In this document: positions 3,045 to 32,000 of the stretch, piece after piece
How the letters are laid out: each line of letters opens with the position of its first letter
How positions within the stretch are numbered: position 1 is the first letter of the stretch
Assembly (NCBI RefSeq): GCF_001457615.1
Contig: NZ_LN831024.1
Span: 2,220,001 to 2,252,000, forward strand
Source of the DNA: Pseudomonas aeruginosa
Lineage (GTDB): Bacteria > Pseudomonadota > Gammaproteobacteria > Pseudomonadales > Pseudomonadaceae
Length of the DNA stretch: 32,000 bases
Direction: 5' to 3'
Translations under genes and position numbers: made by a program
The notes under the pieces: model-generated
Told to the model about the DNA's origin: nothing
Databases searched by the model: none
Seen by the model: only the letters and a program-made list of their open reading frames with translations

Positions 3045-3163
3045 GGCGGTCCGGTAGCTTCCTGACAAACCTGTGGGTTGGTACGCCGGGCCCGGGTTGG
3101 CTATGGTGGGACGATCCGTAGCCATGGCGCGGTCGCCGTCAGCACGCCGCGCAAGGAACCTCC

Positions 3164-4030
3164 ATGTTGAAACCCGACATCACTGCCTTCTTCGACCCGG
3201 CCACCTCCACCTACAGCTACGTGGTGCGCGACCCGTCCAGCCGCGCCTGCGCCATCGTCGACCCGGTGCTCGACTACGACCCGGCCGCCGGGCGCACCAG
3301 CCATGCCAGCGCCGAACGCCTGATCGCCCATGTTCGCCAGCACGACCTGCAGGTGGAATGGCTGCTGGAGACCCACGTGCACGCCGACCACCTGTCGGCG
3401 GCCATCTTCCTGCAGCGCGAACTGGGCGGGTGCCTGGCCATCGGCGCGCGAATCACCCAGGTCCAGGCGAAATTCTCCGGCCTGTTCAACCTCGGCGAGG
3501 CGTTCCCGGTGGACGGCCGCCAGTTCGAGCACCTGTTCGAGGACGGCGAGTCGTTCCGCATCGGCGCCCTGGAATGCCGCGCGCTGCATACCCCGGGGCA
3601 TACCCCGGCGTGCATGACCTACCTGGTCGGCGACAGCGCCTTCGTCGGCGATACCCTGTTCATGCCCGACTACGGCACCGCCCGCTGCGATTTCCCCGGC
3701 GGCGACGCGCGCCAGCTGTATCGCTCGATCCAGCGCCTGTTCGCGCTACCCGACGCGACCCGCCTGTTCATGTGCCACGACTACACGGCTCCCGGCCGCG
3801 ACGAGCACCGCTGCGAAACCAGCGTCGGCGAGCAGCGCCGGCACAACGTGCACGTCCGCGAAGGCGTCGACGAGGAGGCGTTCGTCGCCATGCGCCAGCA
3901 GCGCGATGCCACCCTCGGCATGCCAACCCTGATGCTGCCGGCGATCCAGGTCAACATGCGCGGCGGCAACCTGCCGCCGGTGGAAGGCAACGGGGTGCGT
4001 TACCTGAAGATCCCGCTGGATCTGTTCTGA
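3164..4030 (+). CDS. Metallo-beta-lactamase-fold hydrolase, type II persulfide dioxygenase-like
   Basis: 288 aa. H-x-H-x-D-H motif (ETHVHADH), HTPGHTPAC and GDTLFMPDYGTARCDFPGG. The length and motifs resemble the ~290-aa proteobacterial PDO/SDO group. That functional call is an inference. Confidence 0.85.
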   Translation: MLKPDITAFFDPATSTYSYVVRDPSSRACAIVDPVLDYDPAAGRTSHASAERLIAHVRQHDLQVEWLLETHVHADHLSAAIFLQRELGGCLAIGARITQVQAKFSGLFNLGEAFPVDGRQFEHLFEDGESFRIGALECRALHTPGHTPACMTYLVGDSAFVGDTLFMPDYGTARCDFPGGDARQLYRSIQRLFALPDATRLFMCHDYTAPGRDEHRCETSVGEQRRHNVHVREGVDEEAFVAMRQQRDATLGMPTLMLPAIQVNMRGGNLPPVEGNGVRYLKIPLDLF

Positions 4031-5062
4031 TCAGCTGCGGCGACGCAGCAGGAGAATGAAGAACAGCCCGCCGATGGCCGCGGTGGCGATGCCGATGGGC
4101 AGGTCCTGGGGGGCGATCAGGGTGCGCGCGGCGACATCCATCCAGACCAGGAACAGCGCGCCGAGCAGGGCGCACACCGGCAGCAGTCGGCGGTGCTCGG
4201 CACCCACCAGCAGGCGCGCGGCGTGCGGCAGCATGAGACCGACGAAGCCGATGGCGCCGCTCACCGAGACCAGCACGCCGGTCAGCAGCGAGCAGCAGAC
4301 GAAGACCCACAGGCGTACGCGACGGGCGTCCAGGCCGAGGGTCACGGCGGTCTGTTCGCCGGCCATCAGCGCGTTCAGCGCACGGCCCAGCCCGAGCAGT
4401 ACCAGCAGGCCGCCGGCCACGCACAGCGCCGGCAGCCAGATCAACGACCAGCGCGCCAGGCCGAGGCCGCCGAGCATCCAGAACAGCACAGAGGAGGCGG
4501 CGCGGTGGTCGCCGAGGAACAGCAGCAGGTTGGCCAGCGCCAGGAGCACGAACGACACCGCGACCCCCGCCAGCAACAGCCGGTCGCTGCCCAGGCGGCC
4601 GCCGCGACTGGCCACGCCGAGCACCAGCAGCATGCTGCCGAGGGCGCCGAGGAAGGCCGCCAGCGGCAGGGTCAGCAGGCCGATCACCTCGCCGATGTAG
4701 AGCACCACCAACACCGCGCCGAGGGTCGCGCCGGAGGTGGCGCCGAGCAGGTGCGGATCGGCCAGCGGATTGCGCGTGACCGCCTGCAGGGCCGCTCCCA
4801 CCAGCGCCAGGCCGGCGCCGACGCAGGCACCGAGCAGTACCCGTGGGGCGCGGATCAGCCAGACGATGTGCTCCTGGCCGGCGCTCCAGGCACCGGGCTC
4901 CGCCGCCACGCCGAACAGGCGCTGGAGGACGATGCGGCCGACCAGGCCGCTGTCCAGTCGCGCCGGACCGAAGCCGAGGGCGACCACGCAGGACAGGCCG
5001 AGCAACATGACCAGGCTGCCCAGCAACAGGCAATAGGCGCGAGGGCTGCGGAACAGGGTCAT
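4031..5062 (-). CDS. ABC importer permease, FecCD/BtuC family
   Basis: 343 aa, about 9-10 hydrophobic segments, typical FecCD C-terminus (...PIGIATAAIGGLFFILLLRRR). Its ATG overlaps the stop of the upstream binding-protein gene (ATGA at 5059-5062). Confidence 0.92.
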   Translation of the reverse strand: MTLFRSPRAYCLLLGSLVMLLGLSCVVALGFGPARLDSGLVGRIVLQRLFGVAAEPGAWSAGQEHIVWLIRAPRVLLGACVGAGLALVGAALQAVTRNPLADPHLLGATSGATLGAVLVVLYIGEVIGLLTLPLAAFLGALGSMLLVLGVASRGGRLGSDRLLLAGVAVSFVLLALANLLLFLGDHRAASSVLFWMLGGLGLARWSLIWLPALCVAGGLLVLLGLGRALNALMAGEQTAVTLGLDARRVRLWVFVCCSLLTGVLVSVSGAIGFVGLMLPHAARLLVGAEHRRLLPVCALLGALFLVWMDVAARTLIAPQDLPIGIATAAIGGLFFILLLRRRS

Positions 5063-6030
5063 GGACGTGGCGCCCGAGGGTGGAGGCCGGCGACCAGGGT
5101 TTCTATCGCCGCGGCGTTGCCGATGCCCGGCGTGGCCTGGTTATAGGGCAGGACGATGAAGCGTCGCTCGCGGATCGCGGTCAGGCTGCGCAGCGCCGGG
5201 TTCTCTTCGAGGAAGCGCTGCTTCTGCGCGGCGCTGGTCTCGCCGTAGTCGACGATGACGATGACCTGCGGATCGCGGGCGACCACGCTTTCCCAGTTGA
5301 CCTGGGTCCAACTGGCCGCCACGTCGTCGGTCACGCTGCGGCCGCCGGCGGCCTCGATCAGCGCCTGCGGCATGCCCAGGCGGCCAGAGGTGAAGGGGCG
5401 GTCCTCGCCGCTGTCGTAGAGGAACACCCGCGGCGCCTCGGCGTTCGCCGGGATGCCGGCGCGGGCGCGCTCGATGCGTGCCTGGAGGCTGGCGACCAGG
5501 CGCTCGGCGCGCGGTTCGACGTCGAAGATCCGCCCCAGGTTGCGCAGGTCGCGGTACAGCTCGTCGAGGCTGGCGCGGCGCGGCTCGCCGATCTGCGCGC
5601 AGGATTCGCTCAGCTCGTAGACCTTCACCCCCAGCGGCTCCAGGCTGGCCGGAGTGAGGTCGCCGCCGACGCGCATGCCGTAGCCCCAACCGGCGAAGAA
5701 GAAGTCGGCGTCGACATCGAGCAGGGTTTCCGCCGTGGGGTAGCGCGCCACCAGCTCGGGCAGCGGCTTGAGCGCGGCGATCAATCCGGGATCGGCATTC
5801 TTCCACCAGCCGCTGATGCCGGTATAGCCGACCATGCGCGTTTGCAGACCGAGGGCGACCATCATCTCGGTGAGGTTGATGTCGTGGCTGACTGCGCGCG
5901 ACGGCGCGCGCTCGAACGTCACTTCGCGCTCGCAGCTGCGCACGCTGAGCGGGTAGCGCTCGGCCAGCGCGGCATCGGCGCAGGCGAGCAGGGCGCAGAG
6001 CAGCAGGTGGTGCAGGATCGGGTGCTTCAT
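5059..6030 (-). CDS. Periplasmic substrate-binding protein, FecB/BtuF/TroA-like (cluster A)
   Basis: ORF 5059..6111 trimmed to the ATG at 6028-6030, giving the signal peptide MKHPILHHLLLCALLACADAALA. ATGA overlaps with the ATPase gene upstream and the permease gene downstream. Confidence 0.85.
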   Translation of the reverse strand: MKHPILHHLLLCALLACADAALAERYPLSVRSCEREVTFERAPSRAVSHDINLTEMMVALGLQTRMVGYTGISGWWKNADPGLIAALKPLPELVARYPTAETLLDVDADFFFAGWGYGMRVGGDLTPASLEPLGVKVYELSESCAQIGEPRRASLDELYRDLRNLGRIFDVEPRAERLVASLQARIERARAGIPANAEAPRVFLYDSGEDRPFTSGRLGMPQALIEAAGGRSVTDDVAASWTQVNWESVVARDPQVIVIVDYGETSAAQKQRFLEENPALRSLTAIRERRFIVLPYNQATPGIGNAAAIETLVAGLHPRAPRP

Positions 6031-6800
6031 GCTTGGGTAATCCAGGTCAGGCGCGGGTGGTCGGCGAGGGGGTGGCGGTCGACCAGGGCGCGGACGCCGA
6101 ACACCCGCCACAGCAGGTCGGCGTCGAGCACTTTGGTCGGCGTGCCCTGGGCGACGATGCGGCCGCCGTCGAGCACGTAGAGGCGGTCGCAGAAGGCCGC
6201 CGCCAGGTTGAGGTCGTGGAAGCTCGCCAGGGTGCTCAGGCCGAGGCTGCGCAGCAGGCGCAGAAGCTCCAGCTGGTAGCGCGGGTCGAGGTGGTTGGTC
6301 GGTTCGTCGAGGATCAGCAGGCGCGGCTCCTGAACCAGCGCGCGAGCCAGCAGGGCGCGCTGCTTCTCGCCACCGGAGAGGCTGGCGAAGGGGCTCGCGG
6401 CACGCCCTTCGAGACCGACCTGGAGCAGCGCCTGGCGGACCCGCTGGCGGTCGTCCGCGCCGTGGCCGTCGAACAGGCCCTTGTGCGGCGTGCGGCCCAT
6501 GGCGACCACGTCCTCGACGGCGAGGCCGAAGTCCTCGGGGAATTCCTGCAACACCACCGCGATACGCCGGGCGGCCCAGCGCGGCGGCTGGCGCCAGAGG
6601 TCGTCGCCGTCGAGCACCACCCGGCCGCGCTGCGGTCGCGCATAGCGGAAGGCGCAGCGCAGCAGGCTGGTCTTGCCGCTGCCGTTGGGGCCGATCAGGC
6701 CGACGAAACTGCCGGCCGGGACTTCCAGATGCACGCCGCGCAGCAACTCGGTGGAGGCGTCGGGCGACCAGTGCAGGGCATCGAGGTGAAGGGACGACAT
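6027..6800 (-). CDS. ABC transporter ATP-binding protein (FepC/BtuD-like)
   Basis: ORF 6027..6968 trimmed to the ATG at 6798-6800 (MSSLHLDAL...). Walker A GPNGSGKTS, signature LSGGEKQR, Walker B LLILDEPTNHLD. Confidence 0.9.
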   Translation of the reverse strand: MSSLHLDALHWSPDASTELLRGVHLEVPAGSFVGLIGPNGSGKTSLLRCAFRYARPQRGRVVLDGDDLWRQPPRWAARRIAVVLQEFPEDFGLAVEDVVAMGRTPHKGLFDGHGADDRQRVRQALLQVGLEGRAASPFASLSGGEKQRALLARALVQEPRLLILDEPTNHLDPRYQLELLRLLRSLGLSTLASFHDLNLAAAFCDRLYVLDGGRIVAQGTPTKVLDADLLWRVFGVRALVDRHPLADHPRLTWITQA

Positions 6801-6852: not shown

Positions 6853-9009
6853 TCAGAAACTGAAGTCGGCGGTGACGTTGAACGAGCGTGGCTGGCCCAT
6901 GATCCATTGCTGGCCGTTGTTGTTGTCAGCCAGGGCGTACTGGCGGTCGAACAGGTTGTACAGCTCAAGGCCGAGGGTCAGGTCCGGCCGTACCCGCCAG
7001 CCCAGGTTGGCGTCGACCACCGTGTAGCCGGGCAGGCTGGCCTGGTTGGCGGCGTCGGCGTAGCGCCGGTCGACGTAGCGCAGCCCGGCGCCGACGCGCA
7101 GGGTCTCGGCGAAGGACTTGTCCAGCCAGAGGTTGGCGGTGCGCCGTGGCACGTTCCTGGGGCGGTTGCCGTTGCGCGAGTAGGTCTGCCCGTCGATCGT
7201 TTCGTCGAAGTCGTCGTATTCGGCACGCACCAGCGCGGCGTTCGCCGACAGCCGCCAGTCCTGGGCCAGGTTCAGTTCCAGGCTGGCCTCCAGGCCGTCC
7301 GAACTCTGCTGGCCGACCTGCTGCGCGTCGTGCGGCGGCAGCGGGTTGGCGCTGAGCAGCTTCTTCTTGACGATATGGTAGGCGGCCAGGGTCCATTCGC
7401 CGCGACCGTCCGGGAACAGCTGCTTGAGGCCGACCTCGGTCTGCTTCGAGTGGGTCAGGTCCATCTGCTGCTGGGCCGCGTTGAGGGTGATCAGGTTGCT
7501 CACGCCGTCCTCGCTGGTGGAGTACTGGCCGTACAGCGACAGTTCCGGGGTCAGCGCGAAGACCAGCCCGGCGCGCCAGTTGCCGCCCTGCAGGCTGCGG
7601 TCGCTGCGGGTGCCGGCGCGCAGGTCGTCGCGGTCGATATGGTTCTGGTCGCGGCGCACCCCGGTCACCAGCGACAGGCGCTCGTTGAGCTGCAGGCGGT
7701 TCTCGGCGAACAGGGCGAAGGTGCGGGTCTGGCTGCGCGAGTGCGGCCGGTAGGGCGAGCGGCTTTCGAAGTAGCCGGGCGCGGGATGCCAGGGGTCGAT
7801 GTAGTCGCCGCCGACATCGGTATAGGGCGAGTTGTTGCTCAGGCGGAAGCGGATGCGGTTGTACTCGGCGCCGACCAGGGTGCGGCTGTCGAGGCCGAAC
7901 AGGGCGTGCTGGAAGGCGAAGGTCTGGCGGTCGCCGATCTGCTCCTGCTCGTGGCTGATGCGCAGGTAGTCCCTGCGCAACAGCTCTTCGCGCGGGACGT
8001 CCCATTCGTAGGTTTCGGCGTTGCGCCAGTGGCGGCGGGCCTTGATGTAGTACAACTGGTTGCTCGCGGTGACGCTGTCGGAAAGGCTCCAGTCGCTGGT
8101 CAGGCGGGTCCACTGGTCGTTGTAGCGCTGCACGTCGTTGCGCACGTTGTAGTTCTTCTCGCGCAGGCGCTTGTGGTACTTGCCGCCGACCAGCGGGGTG
8201 CCGAAGTCGTTCATCGGCTCCTGGTCGCCATAGTCGTGGGCGAGAGTGAAGGCCAGATCGTCGCTGGCCTGCCAGCGCAGCGCCGCGCTGATGCCCAGGT
8301 TGCGCGAGTCGCCACGGTCGATCCAGCCGTGGCTCTGCTGCTGGTTCAGGTTGAGCCGGTAGCTGAGGCTGTCGGTCAGCGAGCCGCCGCTGTCCAGGGC
8401 CAACTGGCGGTTGTCGTAGGAGCCGTAGCCGAGGCGCAGGTGGTTGCGGATCTCGCCGGCGAAAGGCTTCTTCGGCACCACGTTGATCACCGCGCCGGTG
8501 GCGCCTTCGCCGTACAGCACCGAGGCCGGGCCGCGGATCACGTCGATGCGCTCGACCATCCACGGATCGCTGGGGAAGTTCACCGTGCCCATGCCGGTGT
8601 ACAGGCGCGTGCCGTCGAACAGTTGCATCACCGATGCGTGGCCGCTGAAGCCGCGCGCCGAGAGGCCGGTACCGCCATCTCCTGGGGTGCCGATGAAGCT
8701 GATGCCGGGGCTGCGGGTGACGGCGGCCTGGACGCTGGGGTTGTTGCGCCGGCGAACTTCCTCGCCGCTGATGCTGCTGGTGCTCGCCGGGGTGTCCAGG
8801 GCGCTGAGGCCCAGACGCGAACCGGCACTGACCGGCGTGGCGAGATCGATGTGGTCGAGTTCGGCGGGGTCCTGGCGAACGCTGACCAGCTGGCTGGGCA
8901 GGGCGAGGGCGGCTTCCTCGGTTTCGGCGAGGGCGGGCGGTACCAGCAGCAGGCTGGTGGATAGGCCGAGGGCGAAAGGCTCGGTGCGCAAACGGCTGAA
9001 GCGGGGCAT
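6853..9009 (-). CDS. TonB-dependent outer-membrane receptor
   Basis: 718 aa. Signal peptide, plug-domain motifs (...IDVIRGPASVLYGEGATGAVINVV...), a long beta-barrel region and the aromatic C-terminus ...FNVTADFSF. Confidence 0.92.
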   Translation of the reverse strand: MPRFSRLRTEPFALGLSTSLLLVPPALAETEEAALALPSQLVSVRQDPAELDHIDLATPVSAGSRLGLSALDTPASTSSISGEEVRRRNNPSVQAAVTRSPGISFIGTPGDGGTGLSARGFSGHASVMQLFDGTRLYTGMGTVNFPSDPWMVERIDVIRGPASVLYGEGATGAVINVVPKKPFAGEIRNHLRLGYGSYDNRQLALDSGGSLTDSLSYRLNLNQQQSHGWIDRGDSRNLGISAALRWQASDDLAFTLAHDYGDQEPMNDFGTPLVGGKYHKRLREKNYNVRNDVQRYNDQWTRLTSDWSLSDSVTASNQLYYIKARRHWRNAETYEWDVPREELLRRDYLRISHEQEQIGDRQTFAFQHALFGLDSRTLVGAEYNRIRFRLSNNSPYTDVGGDYIDPWHPAPGYFESRSPYRPHSRSQTRTFALFAENRLQLNERLSLVTGVRRDQNHIDRDDLRAGTRSDRSLQGGNWRAGLVFALTPELSLYGQYSTSEDGVSNLITLNAAQQQMDLTHSKQTEVGLKQLFPDGRGEWTLAAYHIVKKKLLSANPLPPHDAQQVGQQSSDGLEASLELNLAQDWRLSANAALVRAEYDDFDETIDGQTYSRNGNRPRNVPRRTANLWLDKSFAETLRVGAGLRYVDRRYADAANQASLPGYTVVDANLGWRVRPDLTLGLELYNLFDRQYALADNNNGQQWIMGQPRSFNVTADFSF

Positions 9010-9099
9010 GGGCGTTCCATCTCATGACCGGGCAGGACGGAACGCGCAGGAAATCGCAGGCGCGACAGCGCCTCGAACAACCGGCTCGCTCCCGCCCAC

Positions 9100-9295
9100 C
9101 GCGGGTGTGCCAACAGGGCGTTGCAGGCCGGTCTCCGGGCTTGCGAGGGTCGTGAAATCCTCGCCTTCCCATGCTGGAGCACAGTGGCCTGAAGAGGATT
9201 TCGCTCGCTTACCGTTGCGGGGGCAGCGCCGGACTGATCACTGAAGTGACGCACCGGCTTCCCGTTTCACCTCCTGCGCGGCGGCAGGAGGCACC
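9100..9295 (-). promoter_or_regulatory. Cobalamin (B12) riboswitch in the 5' leader of the TBDR/ABC operon
   Basis: The minus strand reads ...GGTGAAACGGGAAGCCGGTGCG...AGTCCGGCGCTGCCCCCGCAACGGTAAGC...GCCACTG...GGGAAGGCG...AAGCCCGGAGACCGGCCT. The last element (9125-9142) fits the B12-box consensus rAGYCMGgAgaCCkGCcd at every position. The other blocks match the conserved cobalamin-riboswitch core. Confidence 0.85.
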
Positions 9296-9360
9296 TGGAA
9301 CGGGCCGGATGGGAACATCCGCACCGTTTCCAGTCAAGCCTTGAACGATCTGGATTGAAT

Positions 9361-9383
9361 AAAATGTTATACTATAACAATTC
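9361..9383. promoter_or_regulatory. Zur-box-like operator in the divergent promoter core
   Basis: AAAATGTTATACTATAACAATTC matches the gamma-proteobacterial Zur consensus GAAATGTTATAWTATAACATTTC at 20 of 23 positions. The core TGTTATA-C-TATAACA (9365-9379) is a perfect 7-1-7 palindrome. It sits in the only AT-rich patch of the intergenic region and contains -10-like hexamers on both strands (TATACT plus, TATAGT minus). Confidence 0.65.
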
Positions 9384-9474
9384 GCTTGTGCAGTCTTTCT
9401 TCGCCGGACCCCACGCCCTGGCGCAGCTTCCCGGGTCATCACATTTTCTTCACGCCGGCCTGCTATGCTGCCGG

Positions 9475-9600
9475 CCTTCCTTGGGGAGTAGCCTGCCGTC
9501 ACCCGTTGACGGCGCGCTGGTCAACATTCTTGGCAACCTGCCATGGCCAGCGCATCCAACCGGATTGGTGAGACCAACGACATTCCTGCGCCAAAGCCGG
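9475..9600 (+). promoter_or_regulatory. yybP-ykoY-type manganese riboswitch in the mntP leader
   Basis: Conserved blocks TTGGGGAGTAGCC (9481-9493), GGTCAACAT (9519-9527) and GGTGAGACCAA (9567-9577). P1-like pairing TTGG/CCAA. Internal hairpins GCCGTCA/TGACGGC and CCAA/TTGG. A further hairpin, GCCGGGC...GCCCGGC, abuts the GGAG Shine-Dalgarno of mntP. Confidence 0.75.
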
Positions 9601-9645
9601 GCCGCGGGGTCATGTCGTTGACTCATGCCCGGCTGGAGTATCCGC

Positions 9646-10215
9646 GTGAATCCCGTTTCCCTGATCTTCCTCGCCTTCGCCATGTCCACCGATGCCTTCG
9701 CCGCGGCCATCGGCAAGGGCTCCAGCCTGGATCGGCCGCGCCTGTCGGAGGCGCTGCGCACCGGGATAATCTTCGGCGTGATCGAGGCGATCACCCCTCT
9801 GGTCGGCTGGCTGCTTGGCCAGGCCGCCAGCCAGTTCGTCGCCGACTGGGACCACTGGATCGCCTTCGTCCTGCTGGTGCTGCTCGGCCTGCACATGATC
9901 CACAACGGCCTGCGCGCGGATCATGCGACGGAACAGGAAAAGCCCGGCCAGCATTCGTTCTGGATTCTCGCGGTGACGGCGCTGGCCACCAGCATCGACG
10001 CGCTGGCGGTGGGCGTCGGCCTGGCCTTCGTCGACGTCAACATCTTCCTCGCCGCTGGCGCCATCGGCCTGGCCACCATGACCATGGTCACCCTCGGCAC
10101 CATGCTCGGCCGGGCGCTCGGCGCAGTGACCGGCAAGCGCGCGGAGATGGTCGGCGGGGTGGTGCTGATCCTGGTCGGTGCGACCATTCTCTACGAGCAT
10201 CTCAGCGCGGCGTGA
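9646..10215 (+). CDS. mntP: Manganese efflux pump MntP
   Basis: Strong similarity along its length to E. coli MntP as I recall it ([17 protein letters not shown]...[22 protein letters not shown]...HWIAFVLL...[15 protein letters not shown]). Start set at GTG 9646, which has GGAG 7-11 nt upstream. The track ORF starts at 9625. Confidence 0.9.
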
Positions 10216-12094: not shown

Positions 12095-13334
12095 CGCGGG
12101 GAGGCTTCCTGGCGGCGGGTTTGCGCAATTCCAGCAGAGTGATCGGCAAGGCCTGGCGCCAGGTATCGAAACCGCCCAGCGGTCGCGCGTGGGCGACGCC
12201 GAGGCGGGTGAGGTTGCCCCCCAGGCGTTGCTGCCAGTCGAGCAGCACCCGTTCGCTCTGCAGGGTGACCGCGTTGGCGAGCAGGCGGCCGCCGGGCCGC
12301 AGGCGCTCCCAGCAGGTTTCCAGCACGCCCTCGGCGGTGACCCCGCCGCCGATGAAGATGGCGTCCGGCTCGGGCAGTTCCAGCAGCGCCTCCGGGGCGC
12401 TGCCGGCGACCAGGTGCAGGGACGGTACGCCGAGGGCGTCGCGGTTGTGGCGGATATGTTCCTGGCGCTCGTCGTTGGCTTCGATGGCGATCGCCCGGCA
12501 ACTGGGGTGCGCGCGCATCCATTCGATGCCGATGGAGCCGCAGCCGGCGCCGACGTCCCAGAGCAGCTCGCCGGGGCAGGGCGCCAGGCGCGCCAGGGTC
12601 ACGGCGCGGACGTCGCGCTTGGTCAACTGGCCGTCGTGGCGATAGGCTTCGTCGGCCAGGCCCGGGGTCAGCGGCAGGCGCACGGCGCCGGTGCCGGCGC
12701 GGCATTCCACCGCCACCAGGTTGAGATCGGCGGCGCGCGGCAGCGACCAGTCGCCGGCGAGGCCGTCGAGACGGCGCTCGAGCGGCCCGCCGAGGTGTTC
12801 CAGCACGCTCAGGCGACTGGCGCCGAAGCCACGGGCGCTCAACAGGCGGGCGATGGCGGCCGGGCTGTCGCCGTCGTTGCTGAGGACCAGCAGGCGCCGG
12901 CCGTCGTGGACCTGTGCCTGCAGCGCCGCCAGCGGACGCGCCACCAGTGACAGGCAGGCGACTTCCTGCAGGGCCCAGCCGAGGCGGGCGGCGGCCAGCG
13001 AGAGGGAGGAGGGCGCCGGCAGGACCCGCAGTTCGGTCGCCGGCAGTTGCCGGGCGAGACTGGCGCCGACGCCGAACAGCATCGGGTCGCCGCTGGCCAG
13101 CACGCAGGTCGGCTGGCCGCGCCGGGCCAGCAATGGTTCCAGGGAGAACGGCGTCGGCCAGGTTTCGCGGGCGGCGCCGATGCACGGCGGCAGCAGTTCC
13201 AGCTGGCGCGCCGCGCCGACGATCCGGCTGGCTTGCAGCAGGGCACGCCGGGCCTGCTTGCCGAGGCCGGGATAACCGTCCTCGCCGATGCCCACCAGGG
13301 TCAGCCAGGGCGGCGTCGAGTCTGCCGATGACAC
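12087..13334 (-). CDS. cobL: Precorrin-6Y C5,15-methyltransferase (decarboxylating) CobL
   Basis: 415 aa. N-terminal tetrapyrrole methylase domain ([11 protein letters not shown]...) plus a CbiT-like SAM methyltransferase domain ([15 protein letters not shown]). GTG start at 13334 with AGGAG 10 nt upstream. Confidence 0.92.
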
Positions 13335-13435
13335 GGTTCCGATACTCCTGAAATGCGTCTGTGAAGGGCCCGCGACGGCTTCCGGACGGAATGGGTTTTC
13401 CCGGCCCCGGGCTGGGCGGCATAATAGCGCGTTCG

Positions 13436-13665
13436 TCGGTGCCCGGCCCTTTCGCGTTAGCGCGGGGCCAACGAGGGCCGAAGAGGGAACACGGAGCCGC
13501 GGTCTTTTCGAAGCCCGGGCCTAGCCGTGGCTGCCCCCGCAACTGTATGCAGCCTGTATTCGCGCCATTCGCCACTGGATTACCGGGAAGGCGGCGCGAA
13601 GCGGAGGTTCCTCCCCCGGGTGGAACGCCGGGCTGCGAGCCAGGAGACCTGCCGCCGAAACCAGT
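13436..13665 (+). promoter_or_regulatory. Cobalamin (B12) riboswitch in the cobGHIJ leader
   Basis: Plus strand reads ...GGTGCC...AGAGGGAACACGGAGCCGCGGTC...GCCGTGGCTGCCCCCGCAACTGTATGC...GCCACTGG...GGGAAGGCGGCG...GAGCCAGGAGACCTGCCG. The last element (13637-13654) fits the B12-box consensus at every position. A CATAAT -10-like hexamer lies at 13420-13425. Confidence 0.85.
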
Positions 13666-13688
13666 CGCGAGTGCCAACATCGGGCGGG

Positions 13689-31369: not shown

Positions 31370-32000
31370 TCAGCCTTTCTTCTTGCCCGGCAGGATGCCC
31401 ATCAGCTTGCAGATGATGCCGAGCATGATCTCGTCGGCACCGCCGCCGATGGATACCAGGCGGGTGTCGCGGTAGGCGCGGGAGACCGGGTTGTCCCACA
31501 TGAAGCCCATGCCGCCCCAGTACTGCAGGCAGGCGTCGCTGACCTCGCGGCCGAGGCGGCCGGCCTTGAGCTTGGCCATGGAAGCCAGGCGCGTCACGTC
31601 CCTGCCTTTCACGTACAGCTCGGTGGCCTGGTAGACCAGGGCGCGCAGCGCCTCGACCTCGGTCATCATCTCGGCCATGCGGAAGTGGATGACCTGGTTG
31701 TCGATCAGCGGCTGGCCGAAGGTCCTGCGCTCCTTGCAATACTCGATGGTGACGTCGATGCAGTGCTCCAGGCCCTTGATCATGTTGGCCGCGCCGAACA
31801 GCCGTTCTTCCTGGAACTGCAGCATCTGCATCATGAAGCCGGCGCCCTCCGCGCCGATGCGGTTGCGCTGCGGTACGCGGACGTTATCGAAGAACACCTG
31901 GGCGGTCTCCGAACTGCGCATGCCGAGCTTGTCCAGGTGCGGACTGAGGGTAATGCCCGGGGTCTTCATCGGGACCACGATCAGCGACTTGTTGACGTGC
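31370..32000 (-). CDS. atuD: Citronellyl-CoA dehydrogenase (acyl-CoA dehydrogenase), C-terminal part; 5' end lies off the right edge
   Basis: The reading frame stays open to the window edge. ACAD middle and C-terminal domains (...GMRSSETAQVFFDNVRVP...YRDTRLVSIGGGADEIM...). Confidence 0.9.
   Translation of the reverse strand, partial: HVNKSLIVVPMKTPGITLSPHLDKLGMRSSETAQVFFDNVRVPQRNRIGAEGAGFMMQMLQFQEERLFGAANMIKGLEHCIDVTIEYCKERRTFGQPLIDNQVIHFRMAEMMTEVEALRALVYQATELYVKGRDVTRLASMAKLKAGRLGREVSDACLQYWGGMGFMWDNPVSRAYRDTRLVSIGGGADEIMLGIICKLMGILPGKKKG

Follow-up and report, generated by a model that had tools for sequence, protein, structure and literature searches.

Does the intergenic gap between PA2911 and PA2910 of Pseudomonas aeruginosa, into which a zinc operator and two riboswitches are packed, form one regulatory circuit, or is it shared by two neighbouring units that are controlled separately? 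The gap lies in the 32,000-nt stretch of the chromosome analysed here (the window, NZ_LN831024.1 positions 2,220,001 to 2,252,000; all coordinates count from its first letter) and, as an earlier note on this DNA had described it, comprises the 636 bp (9010-9645) between a minus-strand TonB-dependent receptor and ATP-binding cassette (ABC) importer operon, PA2911-2914, and the plus-strand gene mntP (PA2910). That note described the Zur operator, the cobalamin riboswitch and the manganese riboswitch as packed into this gap, which implies one region-wide circuit, and read the importer as sitting behind a two-layer AND gate for zinc and corrinoid. The reading we favour, with a probability of roughly 0.55, is one of two back-to-back, independent units: an importer operon that is repressed by Zur and controlled by a B12 riboswitch, and a separate mntP unit with a manganese riboswitch.

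All three elements have been published individually (the riboswitches and transcription starts, the Zur site, and Zur binding). New here are the explicit link between Zur and the riboswitch, the order in which they were acquired (riboswitch first, Zur later), a lineage-specific leader hairpin and the layout of the locus in the putida group. Our literature searches combining both terms found no publication that links Zur with a cobalamin riboswitch, and the zinc publications on PA2911 that were examined, three of them by term search, as well as a 2022 review, contain no mention of a riboswitch.

Zur and a cobalamin riboswitch on the PA2911 transcript

If Zur and the riboswitch act on the same RNA, the start of the PA2911 transcript will fall between the operator and the aptamer. 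We placed the transcription units in the window via the PA14 coordinates of PA2907-PA2914 given by Wurtzel 2012, who used differential RNA sequencing (dRNA-seq). PA14 and the window are collinear and every gene end of PA2907-PA2914 maps exactly with a constant offset of 2294501; the mutagenesis primers published for PA2911 also match the window sequence exactly, and PA2911 shares 100% identity with a P. aeruginosa cluster of 1113 protein sequences. From the mapped start at 9356 (Table 1) the 5′ untranslated region (5′UTR) is 347 nt long with the ATG at +348, and it was already annotated from the PA14 data as "containing a cobalamin riboswitch" (Wurtzel 2012). Since this start lies between the Zur operator and the aptamer, both act on one transcript, and the series wiring that the AND gate of the earlier note presupposes is real.

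The near-consensus Zur palindrome previously placed at 9361-9383 is borne out by the matrix scan and by the literature. Its core GTTATACTATAAC (9366-9378) occurs only once in the 32 kb of the window, where 0.02 matches are expected by chance, and the 17-mer at 9364-9380 is letter-identical to the PA2911 Zur site predicted in Pederick 2015 (Table S1). On a leave-one-out matrix built from the eight other published sites, which themselves score 20.5-31.2 bits, this 17-mer reaches 28.7 bits, compared with an average of 9.2 bits (maximum 13.6) for the best match in shuffled 32-kb sequence. High-affinity binding of Zur to the PA2911 promoter has been reported from electrophoretic mobility shift assays (EMSA; Ducret 2021). 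Elsewhere in the window a weak Zur-like match (31881-31897, ACGTTATCGAAGAACAC, 12.8 bits) falls inside the shuffled range and is probably due to chance.

A scan of 8950-9700 for consensus sigma-70 promoters returned no match, and the promoters were placed from the published start sites. Relative to 9356 the hexamers TGCACA (-36..-31) and TAACAT (-13..-8) stand 17 nt apart, and both are unchanged in P. paraeruginosa. The Zur site covers -8..-24, overlapping the -10 box and the spacer, which is the classical position of a repressor; because the operator overlaps a sigma-70-type promoter in this way, zinc-loaded Zur is expected to block initiation. PA2911-2914 are induced 8.0-9.1-fold in a znuA mutant, uniformly across the four genes (Pederick 2015), and are repressed by zinc (Secli 2024), the evidence for zinc repression being published quantitative reverse transcription polymerase chain reaction and RNA sequencing. 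We had also considered that Zur acts on the conserved TTGACT promoter further downstream, which would put the Zur box at about -64..-76, and dropped this because the mapped start at 9356 reveals a separate upstream promoter.

A 2022 review noted that the Zur box of PA2911 is "more than 300 bp upstream of the ATG"; its own scan missed the site, and it offered no reason for the distance. The cobalamin riboswitch that lies between operator and gene accounts for this gap. Other members of the P. aeruginosa Zur regulon (znuD, PA1922-25, zrmA/cntO, PA4063-66) likewise carry the 17-bp palindrome over their -10 region (Pederick 2015; Ducret 2021), share published Zur binding and zinc repression, and are in several cases linked to cobalt. 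In contrast to these, PA2911 is the only one among the Zur targets in the literature examined to have a riboswitch between operator and gene, and its induction is comparatively weak.

The riboswitch itself, which the earlier note had recognised on the minus strand by a B12 box at 9125-9142, matches RF00174 at 9313..9109 with 121.4 bits, far above the gathering score of 31.5 (E = 3e-30, model positions 1-189 of 189). The B12 box reads AAGCCCGGAGACCGGCCU on the minus strand (9142..9125) and is aligned to GCCAGGAGACCuGCC of the model, and the aptamer spans +44 to +248 of the transcript from 9356, on the same strand as PA2911 and inside its 5′UTR. It is listed among the predicted B12 riboswitches of P. 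aeruginosa by RegPrecise and by Vitreschak 2003. Transposase-2, SorX and beta_tmRNA also come up as low Rfam matches here; they overlap the aptamer, fall well short of their gathering scores and were treated as chance.

A terminator scan of 8950-9700 found no intrinsic terminator. The ribosome-binding site of PA2911 is predicted to be paired almost completely (its probability of being unpaired is about 0.01, both in the window and across 76 orthologues), and the hairpin that holds it reaches the start codon. RNAalifold finds a conserved helix (CCGGCCUG/CAGGCCGG) that competes with the 3′ strand of the aptamer stem P1, as well as an invariant hairpin (CCCGC-GGUGG-GCGGG) directly after the aptamer; these conserved helices show almost no covariation, as the sequences are too similar. 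Translational control is the predicted mode for B12 elements of gamma-proteobacteria, and the features of the PA2911 leader fit it. The PA2911 riboswitch is most likely a translational OFF switch, in which the corrinoid-loaded RNA would keep the ribosome-binding site and the start codon paired, while secondary effects of Rho or of decay on the leader are possible.

We infer the ligand response of both riboswitches in the gap, the translational mode and a multiplicative logic. Zinc-loaded Zur would block initiation at PA2911 and the corrinoid-loaded riboswitch would then hold translation off, such that the output of PA2911-2914 would be roughly the product of "zinc low" and "B12 low". As the two layers sense different chemicals, the circuit would combine two nutritional states. 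PA2911-2914 is under study as a cobalt importer related to zinc starvation and virulence in P. aeruginosa, and given the riboswitch, measurements made on it are predicted to vary with B12 status and hence with cobalt supply and growth medium. A further prediction is feedback: cobalt that has been taken up and built into B12 would shut off its own import.

Origin of the two promoters and the leader hairpin

We compared the control region across 80 loci that encode PA2911 orthologues of 65-95% identity, each GTDB species being represented once. A cobalamin riboswitch precedes the orthologous receptor in 79 of them, including species of the putida, syringae and cichorii groups, and in the remaining one a contig end interrupts the locus; all 18 loci that were tested with Rfam confirmed the element (109-120 bits). 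Immediately ahead of the aptamer, a promoter TTGAC(G/T)-17 nt-TCAGAT/TCATAT/TCCCAT occupies the same position in 78/78 comparable sequences (77 loci and the window itself). From a riboswitch in 79/80 loci and its own promoter in 78/78 sequences it follows that the ancestral control of the receptor is a riboswitch with its own promoter. Among the 80 loci, only that of P. paraeruginosa (L001) has a Zur site upstream of this element, the best matches elsewhere being at background level, and within the 12 species that have kept the receptor-plus-ABC operon layout the site is confined to the P. aeruginosa lineage. Restricted as they are to P. aeruginosa and P. paraeruginosa, the Zur promoter and the adjacency of mntP are thus innovations of that lineage. 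In our favoured reading the lineage gained a promoter under Zur repression some 55 bp further upstream, by which an uptake system linked to B12 and cobalt came to join the regulon of zinc starvation. This comparison shows how an existing riboswitch unit can enter a new regulon simply by gaining a repressible promoter upstream. In one Pseudomonas sp. locus (L003) a TwoAYGGAY RNA (RF01731) was found at 2017-2077 on the minus strand, some 600 nt ahead of the riboswitch, with 43.0 bits, equal to its gathering score.

The leader made from the Zur promoter has 43 extra nt ahead of the aptamer, which are predicted to form a hairpin with the first bases of the aptamer. In the window the 41-nt and 67-nt segments that contain it fold with -19.5 and -27.3 kcal/mol (z about -3.0 to -3.4), and the same segments of P. 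paraeruginosa with -23.3 and -29.5 kcal/mol (z -3.6 to -4.7). For a slightly different 41-nt segment the values are -22.5 kcal/mol in the window and -26.3 kcal/mol in P. paraeruginosa, compared with a median of -6.6 kcal/mol (median z +0.8) for the 78 sequences. Only two substitutions separate the window from P. paraeruginosa in this stretch, both of which keep or strengthen the hairpin; in the other 76 species the equivalent DNA is untranscribed and the hairpin is absent. The pair probability of P1 is about 0.2 in RNA starting at 9305 and 0.0 in RNA starting at 9356. As the hairpin buries the 5′ strand of P1, the zinc-starvation transcript may sense B12 poorly. The hairpin also overlaps the former -35, spacer and -10 of the ancestral promoter.

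These observations bear on a different logic, closer to OR, in which the promoter decides what the riboswitch does. A short transcript with a start near 9302 would be sensitive to B12 and supply cobalt for B12 synthesis, and the long one from the Zur promoter would override it, because the hairpin at 9334..9296 would trap the 5′ strand of P1 before its 3′ strand is made; with the RNA biased to its unliganded state, cobalt import under zinc starvation would proceed regardless of how much B12 the cells have. The strength of the hairpin in both species, the direction of both substitutions, the loss of P1 pairing in the long RNA, the lack of hairpin potential in the equivalent untranscribed DNA across 78 loci and the intact -35 TTGACT of the ancestral promoter all speak for such a scheme, which also makes physiological sense in that cells need cobalt to stand in for zinc irrespective of B12. 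It rests, however, on thermodynamic prediction in two compared species, and the palindrome could instead be a protein-binding site at the DNA level. Moreover, Wurtzel 2012 lists a single PA2911 start (9356) and none near 9302. We therefore consider the OR-like logic possible but unlikely. In a second start-site dataset (Gill 2018) the one supplementary file examined contains neither PA2910 nor PA2911, and the ancestral promoter may still be active.

Many class-I cobalamin riboswitches regulate via a kissing loop and not via P1, so that the loss of P1 may not abolish sensing, which further counts against the OR-like scheme. If it is nonetheless true that the leader hairpin disables the aptamer, the locus would show clearly that the choice between start sites can determine the competence of a riboswitch.

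Several points also weigh against a Zur-repressed and B12-controlled importer with strictly multiplicative output. Induction of PA2911-2914 is modest (8-9-fold) next to the 45-170-fold of other Zur targets, and Zur repression is not absolute, since the PA2911 start was mapped in cells grown in LB (lysogeny broth). We found no published effect of B12 on PA2911 expression, the only reporter of a P. aeruginosa B12 riboswitch that we found being that of cobW. Two-state constrained folding did not yield a switch, since in each of the 76 orthologues the ribosome-binding site is paired whichever state is modelled. Should the ancestral promoter still fire, it would give Zur-independent, B12-sensitive expression, and the lineage-specific leader hairpin may, as modelled, weaken B12 sensing by the Zur-driven transcript; either would shift the AND gate closer to OR. 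The strict AND logic of the earlier note is therefore unproven, as zinc is the only measured input and the ancestral promoter together with the P1-burying hairpin could break AND behaviour, even though its series wiring stands.

A second arrangement of the same two sensors is found in the putida group. Here 33 species have a strong Zur matrix site (17-27 bits, at least 19 in all but one) just past the stop codon of the receptor and about 35 nt upstream of a gene for a 388-aa Acyl_transf_3/HGSNAT-like (HGSNAT_cat) membrane protein; the site of P. putida reads TAGTTATAAGATAACGT. In 26 of these 33 species, whose Zur sites score 17-26 bits (at least 22 in all but one), the acyltransferase-like gene is followed at about 30 nt by the start of another cobalamin riboswitch, which precedes genes for a binding protein (Peripla_BP_2, first), a permease and an ATPase. 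Rfam gives this second riboswitch 106-107 bits in two loci, nhmmer detected it in the others, and only a weak promoter-like match lies ahead of it. As in P. aeruginosa, one uptake cluster thus combines cobalamin riboswitches with a strong Zur matrix site, and the ABC genes may, by prediction, sit behind both. Unlike in P. aeruginosa, the Zur site is downstream of the receptor, so that the receptor would be under riboswitch control only, and the gene for the 388-aa membrane protein stands between the Zur site and the second riboswitch. Judged from the sequences compared, the Zur-then-riboswitch series of the putida group may have arisen independently. A bolder reading, which we consider possible but unlikely, is that promoter choice sets riboswitch function, with Zur-promoter transcripts, whose hairpin would have evolved from ancestral promoter DNA, bypassing B12 or being less sensitive to it and those of the ancestral promoter remaining B12-sensitive, and that the putida-group coupling of Zur and B12 reflects recurrent selection for joint control by zinc and cobalt/B12. 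In the P. putida locus (L053) a REP-like inverted repeat (repetitive extragenic palindromic; gcgggtaaacccgctcccacagg and its complement) lies between the receptor stop codon and the Zur site (5130-5250).

The mntP unit and its manganese riboswitch

The yybP-ykoY manganese riboswitch that the earlier note had placed on the plus strand matches RF00080 at 9471-9639 with 55.3 bits (gathering score 45), with the terminal helix of the model not formed as aligned. It lies inside the 5′UTR of mntP and ahead of a manganese homeostasis gene (MntP equivalog), and the mapped start had been annotated with a 169-nt 5′UTR "containing a yybP-ykoY riboswitch" (Wurtzel 2012). In the unconstrained fold the ribosome-binding site of mntP (GGAG, 9635-9638) pairs with nucleotides 9555-9563 of the aptamer (z = -3.7), and in this model manganese binding probably frees it, making the element a translational ON switch. 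A manganese-induced translational ON switch operates in E. coli mntP, and the fold of mntP in the window fits it. Our literature search found no publication on PA2910 and manganese.

If the three sensors were one integrated module, either the Zur palindrome would also control mntP or the clustering of zinc, B12 and manganese sensing would itself be selected. The palindrome does have extended -10-like sequences on both strands (TGtTATAGT, TGtTATACT), and the two genes are divergent with start sites (9356 and 9477) only 121 bp apart. However, the mntP start at 9477 has its own -10 (TATGCT), and the Zur site lies at -97..-113 from it, which makes Zur control of mntP very unlikely. PA2910 is also missing from the main text of Pederick 2015, with its table of genes up at least 4-fold, and from the one supplementary file examined. 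On these two grounds we rejected Zur control of mntP through the plus-strand extended -10 in the palindrome. Finally, mntP and its riboswitch adjoin the receptor in just one of the 80 species (L001), so the adjacency is a lineage-specific rearrangement. An integrated module is therefore highly improbable, and the idea of one region-wide circuit has to be given up: the manganese riboswitch and mntP form a separate transcript from 9477, an unrelated neighbour outside the Zur/B12 circuit.

A close parallel to the two-layer control of PA2911 is found in E. coli, where mntP reportedly has MntR and Fur at its promoter and a yybP-ykoY manganese riboswitch in its leader. Both systems combine a metal-sensing protein at the promoter with a riboswitch in the 5′UTR of one transcript, giving two-layer control of a metal transporter, and the mntP of the window bears the same riboswitch class. 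They differ in that both layers sense manganese in E. coli mntP, whereas those of PA2911 sense zinc (through Zur) and corrinoid (through the RNA).

Cargo of the importer and neighbouring features

The earlier note asked whether the importer carries a corrinoid, a zinc or cobalt chelate, or both. This question has largely been answered in the literature, as pyochelin-cobalt and not zinc: PA2911-2914 were assigned to pyochelin-cobalt import, and PA2914 mutants have a lower cobalt content and have lost the response to added pyochelin (Secli 2024). A 2025 paper found a PA2911 mutant to be less fit in zinc-restricting Galleria and gives as the rationale the direct replacement of zinc by cobalt, which can substitute for it in several proteins; the earlier note had instead suggested, as a speculation, zinc sparing through B12-dependent enzymes such as MetH or NrdJ. 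The riboswitch lends independent support to a cobalt/corrinoid role of PA2911-2914.

It may even be asked if the riboswitch is the dominant and ancestral control, Zur a minor overlay, the cargo a corrinoid or a general cobalt chelate, and the pyochelin-cobalt assignment incomplete. To our knowledge, most of the riboswitch-bearing species of the putida, syringae and cichorii groups lack pyochelin synthesis, which, together with the presence of the riboswitch in 79/80 species, would favour such a cargo. In the same direction point the label btuB that RegPrecise gives PA2911, the position of the operon next to the cob cluster, the zinc induction of only 8-9-fold and the indirect nature of the pyochelin evidence. 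Yet the receptor fails the BtuB equivalog models of NCBIfam by a wide margin (TIGR01779, 109.5 against a cut-off of 599.7; NF007926, 52.9 against 836) and fits the siderophore-receptor subfamily (TIGR01783, 302.6 bits, cut-off 223.5), and neither the cobalt and pyochelin phenotypes of the PA2914 mutants nor the fitness loss of the PA2911 mutant in Galleria agrees with it. We regard this alternative as distinctly doubtful. The wide spread of riboswitch-controlled orthologues nevertheless suggests a broader ancestral role connected with cobalt or corrinoids.

Cobalamin riboswitches ahead of transporters that supply B12 are also known from btuB, cbiMNQO and cbtAB, and in P. aeruginosa from PA1271, PA2945 and PA2946. 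PA2911 differs from these in that its receptor is of the FhuA/FoxA siderophore type and not BtuB, and in having a Zur operator at its promoter, none being reported for the other B12-regulated genes listed.

Table 1. Features of the PA2910/PA2911 region (window coordinates) and two putida-group loci (coordinates of the respective locus)
Feature	Coordinates	Strand	Basis
Zur operator, ATGTTATACTATAACAA	9364..9380	none	Matrix score, published site, published EMSA
Zur-controlled promoter: -35 TGCACA (9392..9387), -10 TAACAT (9369..9364)	9364..9392	-	Position relative to mapped start
PA2911 transcription start, mapped by dRNA-seq	9356 (A)	-	Wurtzel 2012 Table S3, PA14 2303857
Ancestral riboswitch promoter, now within the 5′UTR: -35 TTGACT (9337..9332), 17-nt spacer, -10 TCCCAT (9314..9309)	9309..9337	-	
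Lineage-specific leader hairpin, predicted to sequester the 5′ strand of aptamer stem P1	9334..9296	-	Folding energies
Cobalamin riboswitch aptamer, class-I	9313..9109	-	RF00174
Hairpin pairing the PA2911 ribosome-binding site (GGAA) and reaching the start codon	9048..9009	-	Inverted repeat I1; minimum-energy fold
PA2911, TonB-dependent receptor, siderophore-receptor subfamily, first gene of PA2911-2914	6853..9009	-	TIGR01783
PA2912-PA2914, ABC importer genes	4031..6800	-	NCBIfam BtuC/FecCD and binding-protein-type matches; Wurtzel 2012 unit coordinates
Binding protein of the PA2912-PA2914 importer (open reading frame)	5059-6111	-	
Permease of the PA2912-PA2914 importer	4031-5062	-	
mntP promoter: -10 TATGCT (9464-9469), mapped start 9477	9464..9477	+	Wurtzel 2012, PA14 2303978
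Manganese riboswitch, yybP-ykoY	9471..9639	+	RF00080
mntP (PA2910), manganese efflux pump	9646..10215	+	NF008546, 230.1 bits (cut-off 214)
Putida-group Zur site, acyltransferase-like gene, second riboswitch and ABC importer	L053 5280-7846; L072 5215-6656		

The third component encoded within PA2912-PA2914 (4031..6800, minus strand) is the ATPase. On the far side of the operon, PA2915 and PA2916 were up 5.2-fold and 4.2-fold in the znuA mutant and have no Zur site of their own (Pederick 2015, Table 2). Their region corresponds to about 3073-4059 (plus strand) of the window and further left, where a long plus-strand open reading frame has no NCBIfam match. PA2915 lies on the plus strand and is convergent with the PA2911-2914 operon (Wurtzel 2012), so that simple read-through would be antisense to it.

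On the other side, a cob gene cluster (identified with NCBIfam) lies just beyond PA2910. It contains a second cobalamin riboswitch (13420-13670, plus strand, RF00174 89.3 bits), ahead of the cobG-side cob operon; this unit has its start site at 13431 and its first gene at 13671 (Wurtzel 2012), and is divergent from the cobL-side operon that ends at 13334.

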